Assembly: GCA_964016885.1 (NCBI GenBank)
Contig: OZ024741.1
Coordinates: 128,526,001-128,590,000, forward strand
DNA: 64,000 bases
Reading direction: 5' to 3'
DNA from: Eledone cirrhosa
Lineage: Eukaryota
Shown here: positions 12,500 to 61,752 of the stretch, piece after piece
Layout of the letters: each line of letters begins with the position of its first letter
Numbering within the stretch: position 1 is the first letter of the stretch
The notes under the pieces: generated by a model
What the model was told of the DNA's origin: nothing
What the model saw: only the letters and a program-made list of their open reading frames with translations
The model's database searches: none
Program-made: the position numbers and the translations under genes

Positions 12500-12840
12500 A
12501 TATATAATAAAATAAAACAAGGATGAGTGGTTACTCCTTCATTACGTTTATTGGTTGGTGACGCACGTTTCGCCACTGATCAGCTCAAGGTTCGATCTGT
12601 ATCAATCTAGCCCGATTAGATCGAACCTTGATCGAGATCGGTGGCGAAACGCGCGTCACCAACCAATAAAACGTAACGAAGGAGTAACCACTCGTCTTTG
12701 TTTTATTCTATTATACTCTACTCTGTCAAGCTCTACACCTCGATACAAACGTGAACCTAAACATCGAGTGCTCACCCGGGTGAACTTACAGTAACTCCAC
12801 TCCCTGGAGTGATATATATACAGTAACTTACACTCCCTGG
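12497..12840. mobile_element. Palindromic PLE-like pLTR element, family D
   Basis: Inverted arms ~12497-12612 and 12617-12716 with hammerhead 3' half ggc-GAAA-cgcgcg-TC-acc, then a tail; flanked by TA repeats; homologous to 23131-23365. Confidence 0.75.
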
Positions 12841-13553
12841 ATATATATATATATATATATATATATATATCGCATACTACATGTGTTTGCTTGCGCATCC
12901 GTTCGTGCACCACCCTCTACAACACAGGAACACTTCTACGCCCATGCACATACAGCTGCACATGCTTGCACAATCACACGGTGGCGGCCGGGGCCCGCTC
13001 GCGTGTGCAAACGTTTGACCTCACACGCATACACAACCAGCCTACACTACTAATACTCACTAACTCCCCACTATTATGGCCACAACACCTGTAGCTAACA
13101 CCCCACCGCCTCTACGTACGAGCGCCCGTGTGCGCGGACTTGCGTGTGTGTGTGCGTGTGTGTGTGCTCGAGCCCGTGCATGTGTCTGCACTTACGCATG
13201 CAGCCACACATCGTTCGCCAGCAACCACACATCTCGGCCTAACACACATGCTGGCATATATATATATATATAAATAAATATATATCTATCTATATATATA
13301 TATATATAATCATATATATATATCTATATATATAATTTTTCGTTTCTGAATTTGTTTAGCAAGATTCTTTATCTGAAATCGTGTGTTGAAACCGATATTG
13401 TTATACTTTGGGAGGGTCATGTTGCCAATAAGAAACACACGCACCAGTTGCTTTCACTTCAATTTAATTTAATATATATTTATAAATTTACAAATTTATA
13501 AATTTCTGGTTGGTTGGTTGGTTCCACAACCAGATAGTTGTTTATATATATAT

Positions 13554-13598
13554 AGTCATAGTTCTTTCGTCACACACTCTGTGACCTCTTCAGTGACT
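13554..13598 (-). ncRNA. Minimal hammerhead ribozyme (family F, left arm)
   Basis: Reverse complement of 13767-13811. Confidence 0.7.
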
Positions 13599-13766
13599 GG
13601 GGATTTCTTTCTTCGTTTCTGTGCCTTTCCTTTCTTCTATCCTACGCCATTTTGTTTGTGTGTGGGTTGCGTGCTCAGTTTGCGCATGCGCCACATCCGG
13701 GTGTCTGTGTGTGTTTGTGTTCATTTTTCTATTTTAACGAAGAAAGAAACGAAGAAAGAAATCCCC

Positions 13767-13811
13767 AGTCACTGAAGAGGTCACAGAGTGTGTGACGAAA
13801 GAACTATGACT
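13767..13811 (+). ncRNA. Minimal hammerhead ribozyme (family F)
   Basis: agtca-CTGAAGA-g-gtcaca(gagtg)tgtgac-GAAA-gaac-TA-tgact. Confidence 0.7.
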
Positions 13812-13970
13812 ATATATATATAAACAACTATCTGGTTGTGGAACCAACCAACCAACCAGAAATTTATAAATTTGTAAATTTATAAATATATATTAAATTA
13901 AATTGAAGTGAAAGCAACTGGTGCGTGTGTTTCTTATTGGCAACATGACCCTCCCAAAGTATAACAATAT

Positions 13971-15232
13971 ATATATAATCATATATATATATATATAATC
14001 ATATATATATATAATCATACATATATATATATAATCATACATATATATATATATATATATATATATATATAATCATATATATATATATATATATATATAT
14101 ATATAATCATATATATATATATATAATCATATATATATATATAATCATATATATATATATATATAATCATATATATATATATATATATAATAATATATAC
14201 ATATATATATATTATCATATATATATATATATATATATATAATCATATATATATATATATAATCATATATATATATATATATAATCATATATATATATAT
14301 ATAATCATATATATATATATATATAATCATATATATATATAATCATATATATATATATATATATATATATATATATATATATATAATCATATATATATAT
14401 ATATATATATATAATCACATATATATATATAATCATATATATATATATATAATCATATATATATATATATAATCATATATATATATATATAATCATATAT
14501 ATATATATATAATTATATATATATATATAATTTCATATATATATATATAATCATATATATATATATATATATATATATATATATATATATATAATCATAT
14601 ATATATATATATATATATATATATATATAATCATATAATAATATATATATATATATATATATATATATATATATATATATATATAATCATATATATATAT
14701 ATATATATATATATATATAATCATATATATATATATATATATATATATATATATAATCATATATATATATATATAATCATATATATATATATATAATCAT
14801 ATATATATATATATAATCATATATATATATAATCATATATATATATATATAATCATATATATATATATATATATATATATATATGATTATATATATATAT
14901 ATATATATAAATATATATATATATATATATATATATATGATTATATATATATATGATTATATATATATATATATATATGATTATATATATATATATATGA
15001 TTATATATATATATATATATGATTATATATATATATATATATATATATATACATAATCATATATATATAATCATATATATATATATATATATATATATAT
15101 ATATATATATATATATATATAATCATATATATATAATCATATATATATATATATATATATATATATATATATATATATATATATATATATATATATATAT
15201 ATAATCACATATATATATATATATAATCATAT
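13971..15232. repeat. (TA)n-aatca minisatellite with an internal orientation switch
   Basis: Units (ta)n-atca; reversed units (tgat) at ~14880-15025. Confidence 0.9.
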
Positions 15233-15444
15233 CATGCTCAGAGGTGGGTGAGGTTCTATTACTAAAATGAAAGGCAAAGAAATGGTCTAACCTGCACCCT
15301 TCCGAACCCATAACACAAGCTAGAACGAATTTAAAGAGCTTGCTAGAATCCCGAGACACATATAATTCAATATGCAAAATCAGAACTGATGACTGCATAG
15401 AAGTTAACTGTAGAATCTGAATACACCTGTTCATATATGTTTGT

Positions 15445-15830
15445 TCATACCAATAGCAAGACACGAGTTGTCGCAAATAGATTTGAAACTTTGCAATTTT
15501 CGAAGACATAGCTTCTAGCCTGTAAATAATTCTTTACGAGAGTACTTTCAGATAAATAATTGAACTCTTTTGATACGAACCCGACCAAAACCGACTCTGG
15601 TTCTATTAAACGAAACCATAATAACCATTTAAAGGGTTCCTTTGTCAATTTAAATCTGTCAGCATAATTTTATATAAGAACCATATGTTAAATTACTCTA
15701 GTAATGAAATAATTAATATATTTTATGTATTCTTGTATTTCATTACCAATACAGTCGTGGAGCTGGAGCCAGATTTAAATAACTATCAAACAAATACAAT
15801 GGTGTTTTATTATGAGGTTGTTTTTATATA
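15445..15830 (+). repeat. ~380 bp unclassified dispersed duplicate of 20884-21265
   Basis: Colinear text ccaatagcaagacacgagttgtcg...ttatgaggttgttt at both loci. Confidence 0.85.
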
Positions 15831-59258: not shown

Positions 59259-59317
59259 GAAAAAAAAAAAAATTAATCAATAAATAAAAAAATAAAAAAA
59301 AATATATATATATATAT

Positions 59318-59492
59318 AACGAAGGAAATGGGGTAAGGAACCAGGTGGACCATAACGCACCAAAGTACTCAATACTTAGGGTAGTAGAGTGGGTAATAGG
59401 AACAAGTAAGACCCCGACGGCTGAGCTCAAGCCGTTTCGAATTAGCCGTCGAAACGGGTTGAACTCAACCGTCGGGGTCTTACTTGTTCCTA
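59318..59492. mobile_element. Palindromic family A element
   Basis: Same layout as 18427, in (TA)n. Confidence 0.85.
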
Positions 59493-59789
59493 TATATATA
59501 TATATATATATATATATATATACATATATATATATATATATATATATATATATATATATATATATATATATACATATATATATATATATATATATATATA
59601 TATATATATATATATATATATATATACATACACACATACATACACATATACACACACATACATTAATAACAATAATAATAATAATAATAATAATAACAAC
59701 AATAATAATAACGACAACAACAATGATAATATACATATACATATATATACACATACACGCACACACAAGCATATCTATACACACACACA

Positions 59790-60645
59790 TTTACACGATA
59801 GCAACTAACAGCGCTGCGATCGAATGTGGCTTTTTAGCCCAGCCAATGATCTAAAATGTCTTGCACAGAGTCGGCAACCAAAACACTCACTGGGAATAGT
59901 CGGCTGTGGTTGGAGTTCGTGTACTTTTGCATGTCGCTTGAGCCCTCCTGCTGATTTACATTCTCTACCACATATTTGGCAAGCATGATGAGTAGTATCT
60001 CCAACAGCAGCCTGGTAGTCAACCACTGGTCTTACTTTATGACTGCGAAGATGACTTTCGAGTCCAGCTTTGCTTAGGCAGAGTCTCGCACAGACGCTGC
60101 ATGTCAGCACCATAGGAGAACCCTCGCCGTCTGGAAATGCAACAGCAATGCCCTTCCTCACATCCCGCTTTACTTTCTCGTATGCGATTCGAGATGCCTC
60201 AAAGGCAACTTTTCCCTCATATACAGTCTTTCTCCATTTATTACGATCAGCAGCAATATTTTCCCATGTATCAGCAGAGATGTTAGCGTCTTTCAGAGAG
60301 GCTTTCAAGGAATCCTTATACCTCTTTTTTGGTTTATGTGGCGGTCGTTTTCCTTTAACCAACTATCCATAAAAGAGTTGTTTTGGTATTCTAGAATCCT
60401 TCATCCTGGCAAGGTGACCACTCCAACGGAGTCGTTGCTTAAGCACAAGAGCTTCTATACTGTCACACATAGAGCTTTCCAAAATTTCGACATCACTGAT
60501 GTGGTCCCTCCAGTGAACGCCATGGATCCGTCTGAGACACATCTGATGGAAACGCTCCAATTGCTTAAGGTGGTGTCGATATGTGACCCAGGTCTCGCAG
60601 GCATAAAGAAGACAAGAGAGCACACATGCCCTGTACACCGTTACC
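59790..60645 (-). pseudogene. RTE-clade LINE C-terminus with three C2H2 zinc fingers
   Basis: YRACVLSCLLYACETW...LRWSGHLARM..RIPKQLFYG*..GKRP..KPKKRYKD; one in-frame stop at 60363. Confidence 0.9.
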
Positions 60646-61101
60646 ACATACACCATACATACATACATACATATAGAGAGAGAGGGGGAGAGGGAGAGAG
60701 AGAGAGAATATAACGTACAGATGTACGCTTAGAAACCAAAATAGCGAGGTTATTATGAACCAGCGAGGAACCTGGCGTGGTCACTCGATCTGGTCAAATA
60801 GCAGTTAAATCTTCCTCAAAAACCTCTTGTCGTCATATACCATATACAATGGAACATCGGTTCACAAACGCCTCTCATCACGAACAAATCGGACCAGTCT
60901 ACGAACAATTGTTCCGAACATAAAACGTCTCGGCTCACGAACGGTGAACAAGCTTGGAGTACGGGCGGGAAAGCATTACATCCTGTGTAAATTAGTTACT
61001 ATGGTGATATCTACCTGTCTTTCACACTCAGTCTCTCTCTCAACGTTTCATGCATATATATATATATATTTATATACGCACCCACATTAACTTACTCGGC
61101 G

Positions 61102-61320
61102 TTGCATTGGATCTACCCACCTCATTTTACTATCCCCCTCCATAAACTTAACGAATCACTACTATACACCAACATACATTCTAACGACGCTAGAAATATT
61201 ATTAGTAATCTAACAGGAAACATCTTCAAAATATTTAACCTTTCGACTAATTATGAAATATTCAACACTTCGGCACAATATTACAATGGCGCCCTTGCCA
61301 GAAGAGTTTTAAAAAGAAAT
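61102..61320 (+). pseudogene. Degenerate PLE reverse transcriptase thumb fragment
   Basis: LLYTNIHSND..II..L..NI...LS.N.EIFN.SA.YYNGALAR resembles the PLE pattern LYI..SNHP..I...LS....F.....Y..AL. Confidence 0.6.
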
Positions 61321-61389
61321 CCCCCATCCACGCATACCATCTACAACCCCTAATGTCTTTCGGTTTGGACTATATATATATATATATAT

Positions 61390-61752
61390 AATATAAAACG
61401 AAAAATCAGTGATGCGTCTGAACTCAATTTATTGTGTGTTACAATTGTTTCGCCGGCAGACAGCTCGAGACGCGATCATTGTGTGGATCTGTCTGATTCT
61501 GGATCTGCAGGTTCGACGGACACGTCTAATGATTTCGGAGACGTGTCCGTCGAACCTGCAGATCCAGAATCAGACAGATCCACACAATGATCGCGTCTCG
61601 AGCTGTCCGCCGGCGAAACAATTGTAACACACAATAAATTGAGTTCAGACGCATCACTGATTTTTCGTTTTATATTATATCATACTCTGCTCTGTAAGAG
61701 CATAGAGTGCTCAACCGGCATACCGCCTATGGAAGCACCTTAGCTACCATCA
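61390..61752. mobile_element. Palindromic PLE-like element, family E
   Basis: ~137 bp near-perfect arms (61390-61526, 61538-61676) with GAAA-caattg-TA, then a tail. Confidence 0.8.

Follow-up and report, generated by a model that had tools for sequence, protein, structure and literature searches.

In the stretch of the Eledone cirrhosa genome analyzed here (assembly GCA_964016885.1, contig OZ024741.1, positions 128,526,001 to 128,590,000 of the forward strand; the whole 64,000 nucleotides are referred to as the window), six families of short repeats, A to F, are identified from their sequences as the 3' ends of Hydra-type Penelope-like elements, and each carries a small bulged hairpin at the start of its tail. 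A second copy of this hairpin lies ahead of the start codon in longer copies elsewhere in the genome. The two hairpins, their order, their covariation, the offsets of the element ends from them, and the way inverted insertions pair a short end with a tailed one are all directly seen in the sequences. Considering these observations together, we propose that each of the two hairpins probably anchors one reverse transcriptase (RT), which would start copying ~6-9 nucleotides (nt) upstream of it. Such a role of the hairpins in placing the start sites is a likely explanation of the tail left by elements of the Hydra clade.

The bulged hairpin and the elements that carry it

The window families are short palindromes set in (TA)n tracts, with extra sequence, the tail, on one side and hammerhead-like boxes ahead of it. 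A first-pass annotation of the window had reported a shared TACTC...GAGTRC hairpin at the start of the tail in five otherwise dissimilar families. The motif sites named in families A to E were all recovered at or near their reported positions by direct reading, and the flanks indeed differ between families while the motif persists. The pattern ACTC-N6-35-GAGTRC matches the window 31 times, against a shuffled mean of 2.98 (largest shuffle, 8). Since the majority of these matches are repeat copies, the family-level tests weigh more. A refined descriptor that uses sequence only was applied to genome stretches taken at even spacing (700 kb in total) and found 45 sites, where shuffled sequence gave 2.6 on average. 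Some details of the initial description had to be revised. The leading T of TACTC is not conserved, family A having a C there, and the ctcgat/atcgag pairing proposed for family D loses its last pair in other D copies; the register in this family is ACTC at 12720 with GAGT at 12766, and TGT/ACA above a 2-nt bulge. The 2-nt bulge, located on the 3' side of the stem, was absent from that description, and so was a sixth motif-bearing family, F. Two plus-strand look-alikes, 19148-19172 and 22838-22857, were rejected as chance resemblances. Both are part of one other repeat, which we take to resemble a tRNA-derived short interspersed element, and neither has the bulged stem. The output of a repeat finder run on the whole window was dominated by microsatellites, and among the Rfam matches listed for the window (150 of 480) all scored below the gathering score, most being microRNA models on simple repeats.

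Each of the families A to F combines a hammerhead-like core and insertion into (TA)n with a junction, elsewhere in the genome, to a Hydra-type frame encoding RT and GIY-YIG endonuclease. The window copies themselves are truncated and without an open reading frame (ORF). Profile matches are contiguous with families A, C, D, E and F and, in two copies, with B. Family A has a Hydra-type endonuclease upstream, with the second hairpin (hairpin 2) and the ORF in other copies; family B is joined to the start of a Hydra-type ORF in L397 and L005; family C has full-length relatives with hairpin 2 and the ORF, and family D has both in the related copies L327 and L331. Locus L120 holds an 830-aa frame that unites RT and endonuclease, and frames that stay open over a long distance occur in families C, F, H1 and H4. 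The motif was also present in the tailed ends of all four endonuclease families that were chosen by protein alone, H1 to H4 (these names and the family letters are labels of this analysis). In the translations, the CxCX5C linker and the CxxC and CxH motifs were read in H1-H4 and in the D-linked frames, in comparison with the Hydra-clade endonuclease features given in section 11 of PMC8557442. L120 has RWR and DKT, and its homologs have RWK or RWR and DKT or DKS, DKT replacing DKG. Insertion into (TA)n, a trait of the Hydra clade, was confirmed, and 5' truncation, tandem and inverted copies, and a one-ended tail were all found. The boxes and helices of the hammerhead core were read by eye, the first box of family A being degenerate, and cleavage is predicted; no Rfam match reached the gathering score in nine loci. 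One trait differs: with ORFs up to ~2.5 kb and 3' untranslated regions (UTRs) of ~1.5-1.7 kb, H1 and C exceed the length under 3 kb that PMC8557442 gives as typical, not defining, of the clade. A protein-structure search returned generic RT matches, with no Penelope-like structure among the matches listed, and a Hydra protein model matched TERT structures weakly, as it did other RTs.

The window also offers a negative control. Family G has a Neptune-type linker and a tail inside the start of its ORF; the motif is absent, and direct reading of the tail found no GAG. The motif is therefore not general to Penelope-like elements. The sole hairpin-model match in the 5' loci of G (L403) falls outside the tail, and the 15 matches in the 3' loci were not mapped individually relative to it. 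Family G (21621-22520, minus strand, and 13395-13970) is young and abundant, with 150 scored matches that are 96-100% identical. Further tailed palindrome families without the motif were noted at L024 2077, L076 2292 and L040 3247.

The refined motif is a bulged hairpin with the consensus RCTC-stem-loop-stem'-UN-GAGY-NC. GCTC/GAGC-AC is the commonest form outside this genome, and ACTC/GAGT is a variant that occurs in this genome's families. Sites were picked on sequence alone in 196 sources totalling 1.19 Mb, some of them loci that our own searches had enriched. They form 19 clusters, of which two probably represent background or mis-pairing. As the descriptor was drawn from the same families, pairing alone was blind. 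All 19 clusters have a Watson-Crick first pair (14 A-T and 5 G-C; shuffled mean 11.6), and 56 upper pairs are formed against a shuffled mean of 39.9. By bulge size, 48 of 57 upper pairs form at 2 nt, compared to 27 at 0, 6 at 1 and 12 at 3 nt. A tool-made alignment of 21 short-loop copies, nine from this genome and 12 from the metagenome loci described below, the long-loop families having been left out, contains six pairs that are 100% paired and 18 cells with two-sided change, which 0 of 500 shuffles reach. It should be mentioned that these shuffle-based tests are inflated by the kinship of the carriers. On a protein tree of 39 rows (this genome's rows labelled by hand, with no named Hydra, Neptune or Poseidon references), the first pair changes three times, at least two of them forced by strong branches, and the first upper pair changes seven times, at least four of them forced. 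The stem survives apex inserts of up to ~100 nt. G-U pairs exceed A-C pairs (11 and 5 of 174), a weak lean to the sense strand. The pairing support that the first-pass annotation had called for is thus present as covariation across families. A further hairpin is found in the 3' part of the tail in several families, with no shared sequence among them.

Two hairpins and the two ends of the element

In full-length, tandem and read-through copies the order is hammerhead, hairpin 1, hairpin 2, start codon. Hairpin 2, which marks the other end of the tail and had been overlooked in the first pass, is placed 13-55 nt ahead of the start codon. A model built from hairpin 1 alone found both copies in A, C, D, E, F and H3, and the first only in B. 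The presence of hairpin 2 was predicted and then found for C, D, A, F and E. An intact 5' region was seen in six of nine fetched loci for C and D, and hairpin 2 was seen in one copy of A. The F hairpin 2 pattern gave 263 matches (control 0), with 12 of 12 fetched loci running into a Hydra-type ORF, and the E pattern gave 29 matches (control 0), with 10 of 10 running into the ORF. Because both patterns required the 5' half of hairpin 2, the selection did not bear on its 3' half or on the ORF. Hairpin 2 of L120 (5140, minus strand) and of L035 (3446, plus strand) tolerates inserts of ~60-100 nt, one of which is a (TA)-rich tract that lengthens the stem.

An alignment-based protein query retrieved 78 metagenome loci beyond this genome; a single-protein query of metagenomes, the viral contigs scanned and the prokaryote genomes scanned yielded no related loci. 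After removal of 15 loci without an ORF start, seven with short upstream sequence and six duplicates, 50 5' regions remained. Two hairpin copies are present in 29 of them, one in 15 and none in six; control windows with two copies numbered 0 of 980. The spacing between hairpins is 44-83 nt (median 62) in the metagenome contigs and 76-137 nt in this genome. On the 3' side, 70 of the 78 loci reach the end of the ORF and 40 of these have a hammerhead core, followed by the motif in 15 (13 after removing identical pairs; control rate 51/1400). The other hammerhead-core loci comprise eight that meet a TA tract first, nine that meet the contig end and eight of other kinds, three with variant motifs. 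One Hydra-type protein, P0047, is filed under a cyanobacterial metagenome-assembled genome and is likely animal contamination. The single protein match that carried a species name was to Argonauta, which points to a likely cephalopod genome for the window. Six published Hydra consensi in PMC8557442 were read by eye. The motif, which thereby occurs in published coral and sea cucumber consensi, is at the 3' end of two (Hydra-2_Amil and Hydra-2_Ajap) and degenerate in Hydra-1_Crog, and three end without a tail, one of which, Hydra-1_Ajap, has two motif copies at its 5' end.

The motif sits at a near-constant distance from the short end, as the claim of positional fixity in the first-pass annotation demanded. 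Offsets were measured to where the TA run begins, with an uncertainty of a few bases. In A, C, D, E and H1-H4, most short ends are located 6-9 nt ahead of hairpin 1 (A, 8/10 at -8; C, 8/14 at -9; H1, 8/9 at -7; H2, 9/9 at -9; H4, 3/3 at -8; H3, 11/23 at -6). In H1-H4, tailed ends are concentrated 6-9 nt ahead of hairpin 2 (H3, 19/22 at -6; H1, 3/4 at -7; H4, 6/8 at -6/-7; H2, 5/6 at -7/-9), and tailed-end offsets were predicted and then found for C (-9), D (-6), A (-6, one copy), F (-7) and E (-8 to -10). Hairpin 1 and the tailed end are separated by a variable distance, ~40 to 105 nt. Since short ends track hairpin 1 and tailed ends track hairpin 2, the tail is the interval between the hairpins. 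Among inverted pairs in the window and the 700 kb of evenly spaced stretches, 18 join a short to a tailed end, one joins two short ends, none joins two tailed ends and four are unclassified, while unpaired ends number 33 short and 26 tailed. Mixed pairs thus make up 18 of the 19 classifiable, where about half would be expected if the ends were independent (binomial ~4e-5).

Two kinds of junction were noted beside these ends. In L197 (~1670-1840, plus strand) a family D body is fused to an H3 tail at the short-end site, which suggests a template switch or an insertion between families at that site. The full-length copies L302, L297, L224 and L241 start no more than ~10 nt upstream of a hairpin, which is what a single round of copying on a circular or tandem template would produce.

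Table 1. Hairpins and host insertions in the window. Hammerhead and tail coordinates were read by hand and may be 1-2 bases off.
Feature	Position	Strand	Description
Family D hairpin 1	12720..12771	+	long loop; within insertion 12503-12811; hammerhead 3' half, GAAA at 12646
Other A-/B-type hairpin 1 copies	17271..59400		17277, 17427, 18473, 23067, 30064, 30489, 30651, 36346, 38367, 38564, 41246, 42243, 49541, 50746, 59365
Family G, Neptune-type Penelope-like 3' end (negative control)	21621..22520	-	GIY-YIG, hammerhead core, tail ~21621-21678
Family B insertion	44421..44611	+	arms 44421-44536; full hammerhead core 44476-44526, predicted cut after 44520; tail to ~44611
Family B hairpin 1	44548..44568	+	
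Family C hairpin 1	44831..44852	+	upper stem decayed; within insertion 44628-44915
Family A insertion	47719..47910	+	inverted arms 47719-47833; (TA)n on both sides; hammerhead 3' half, GAAA 47791, predicted cut after 47813; short end ~47831; tail to ~47910
Family A hairpin 1	47839..47864	+	ACTC, 4-bp upper stem, TT bulge, GAGT-AC
Family F hairpin 1	50940..50966	-	arms 50975-51177
Family C hairpin 1	51989..52010	-	arms 52010-52386
Family C subfamily hairpin 1	54513..54535	-	
Family E hairpin 1	61684..61710	+	6-bp upper stem; within insertion 61386-61765; hammerhead 3' half, GAAA at 61615

Fragments resembling the ORFs of non-LTR (long terminal repeat) retrotransposons, judged by eye, also lie in the window at 2769-4411 (plus strand), 59805-60728 (minus strand), and 25155-25604 and 27911-28662 (minus strand).

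A proposed two-anchor mechanism and its alternatives

The first-pass annotation had described the hairpin as a conserved cis RNA signal that defines the end of the element. Its conservation, its fixed position and its marking of an end are observed, and we infer that it acts as RNA. In the mechanism proposed here, the template would be a tandem or circular transcript that bears the 3' UTR, the hammerhead, hairpin 1 and hairpin 2 in one RNA. The element protein, likely as two subunits, would bind three features of each hairpin: its invariant CUC/GAG helix, its bulge and its 3' C. Its GIY-YIG domain would nick both strands of a (TA)n tract, and each DNA 3' end could pair with the UA just upstream of one hairpin and prime synthesis there. 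A start at hairpin 2 would copy hairpin 1 and the spacer, giving the tail, a start at hairpin 1 would give the short end, and the two truncated complementary DNAs (cDNAs) would join head to head into an asymmetric palindrome. We lean, with modest confidence, towards the stricter form of this proposal, a two-anchor ruler in which each hairpin loads one RT subunit, one ribonucleoprotein primes both nicked strands and the spacing of the hairpins programs the length of the tail. A precedent is the Poseidon element, for which PMC11167929 describes reverse transcription that starts internally at two tail-bounding sites in a stem-loop, with both strands being cut.

Several observations weigh against the anchoring of RT by the hairpins. 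The Poseidon precedent comes from a different clade, and its tail is inside the ORF. The stems are weak: folding of whole tails recovers the hairpin in five of ten fully folded tails (C, C2, E, H1 and H4, not A, B, D, F and H2; the H3 tail was cut short in this test), and an alignment-based fold predicted just four lower pairs. Three of the six fully paired positions never vary, so sequence counts as much as pairing, and the upper stem of hairpin 2 is weaker, with T-T at its second position in 9 of 29. TA microhomology blurs the offsets. Short ends scatter in family B (6/19 at -8, 8 at -11/-12) and lie at -9 to -12 in F, six of 23 H3 short ends are at -10, and the E tailed ends extend over -8 to -10. 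Read-throughs are rare in family B, and those found have no standard hairpin 2. The family B pattern gave eight matches, of which two are true read-throughs (L396 and L397) and the others resemble chance junctions; hairpin 2 of this family may be a GCRC/GTGC variant. In these two loci (~1500-1700, matched strand), one has a tandem of short B units and one is joined to a Hydra-type ORF.

The main rival explanation is that the hairpins act in DNA, the endonuclease cutting ~6-9 nt upstream of them in long cDNA or integrated DNA to leave a short and a tailed end. The tail is ascribed to endonuclease-mediated resolution in PMC8557442, the Drosophila tail is needed for endonuclease recognition as cited in PMC11167929, and the D-body/H3-tail junction of L197 falls at the short-end site as though this site were a DNA target. 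However, the spacing of the half-sites ranges from a few to ~100 nt while the upper stem covaries, which misfits a duplex DNA site, and the excess of G-U over A-C on the sense strand points weakly the same way. The ends of the Poseidon tail, moreover, coincide with RT start sites in vitro (PMC11167929). We consider resolution at the DNA level unlikely.

The same fixed offsets would be predicted if the hairpins directed cutting or termination of RNA ~6-9 nt upstream, and the two resulting RNA 3' ends were then copied in the manner of a long interspersed nuclear element (LINE). The motif is close to the hammerhead core, as this explanation would have it, but the nine loci gave no Rfam match at the gathering score, Poseidon starts internally with no need of ribozyme cleavage (PMC11167929), and a single RNA cut at hairpin 1 could not also yield the tailed end; RNA cutting is thus improbable. 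We give equally little credence to the idea that the twin motifs mainly control transcription or translation, the ends lying nearby merely via microhomology of the UA-rich spacer with (TA)n. Both hairpins are located in the 5' UTR, the 34-bp Drosophila tail is located in a regulatory region and receives a basal-promoter score (PMC2377424), and some full-length copies (L302 and L297) start near hairpin 1. Yet, although the 3' UTRs are AT-rich over hundreds of bases, the ends cluster at two hairpin-tied points; the variable distance from hairpin 1 to the tailed end also speaks against expression control, which would leave the 18 of 19 mixed inverted pairs unexplained. Finally, although the carriers are all related and the shuffle tests had no kinship correction, it is highly improbable that the motif owes its presence to common descent or chance and serves no function today, as it persists across long protein branches with repeated two-sided changes amid dissimilar flanks and in the coral and sea cucumber consensi, and the alignment shuffles, twin-copy controls and protein-tree changes largely refute such a reading.

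Comparison with known systems

In telomerase, the template-boundary and template-recognition elements are small RNA elements, bound by a related RT, that fix the place of copying. The boundary element is 5' of the template and stops copying. The first-pass annotation had suggested a telomerase-like template boundary for the present motif, which is not supported in that form: the start that the Hydra-type hairpin marks lies 5' of it, and tailed copies contain the whole hairpin, which therefore does not halt the synthesis in question. The hepadnavirus epsilon and the stem-loops in LINE 3' UTRs likewise offer a bulged stem-loop that the element's RT recognizes in order to select and position its RNA. 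Epsilon templates protein priming from its bulge, and the LINE stem-loops are present in a single copy inside the copied region. By comparison, the elements described here would use a nicked-DNA primer and start outside the hairpin, and they have two copies of it.

It has long been asked how Penelope-like elements, which are the sister group of telomerase RTs, acquire a one-sided tail and inverted repeats. In one in vitro study the tail was linked to a pair of internal starts, with no conserved signal given in its available text (PMC11167929). Here, a compact motif predicts both ends to within a few bases, and it serves as a marker by which the abundant short palindromic repeats of this genome can be classed as Hydra-type ends. 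If true, the two-anchor ruler would constitute the cis code underlying both the tail and the inverted repeats of Penelope-like elements, and it would provide a portable tag with which double-ended insertion could be programmed.

The elements share with the Hydra clade of Craig et al. (2021, PMC8557442) the C-terminal GIY-YIG domain with the CxCX5C linker, DKT and RW(K/R), a hammerhead-like core, (TA)n targets, tandem and inverted insertions, and the tail. They differ in being longer than the 3 kb stated there and in a hairpin spacing that exceeds the 30-40 bp given for Hydra tails. The words 'hairpin' and 'stem-loop' are absent from the main text of that paper. Non-LTR retrozymes carry type I hammerheads derived from Penelope-like terminal repeats (PMC4209133; bioRxiv 10.64898/2026.07.22.740005). 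They are tandem non-coding units, whereas the window copies are truncated ends of coding elements, and a downstream hairpin is not described in the consulted portions of either source. The claim of the first-pass annotation that the motif was undescribed agrees with the literature searched, in which no description was found, Repbase, the 2004-2006 Penelope papers and figures being outside that search. The elements are of a known kind, with a hairpin signal and a link to their ends that appear undescribed.

The closest parallels come from the Poseidon element PAc (Frangieh et al. 2024, PMC11167929), in which two internal RT starts bound the tail, initiation takes place in a stem-loop, both strands are cut at AT-rich DNA and a dimer is predicted. 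The PAc starts are inside the ORF in one AC-rich stem-loop, and the available text reports no repeated conserved signal. In contrast, the Hydra-type elements here have two copies of one conserved hairpin within the 5' UTR, and each copy is situated 3' of the start to which it belongs.

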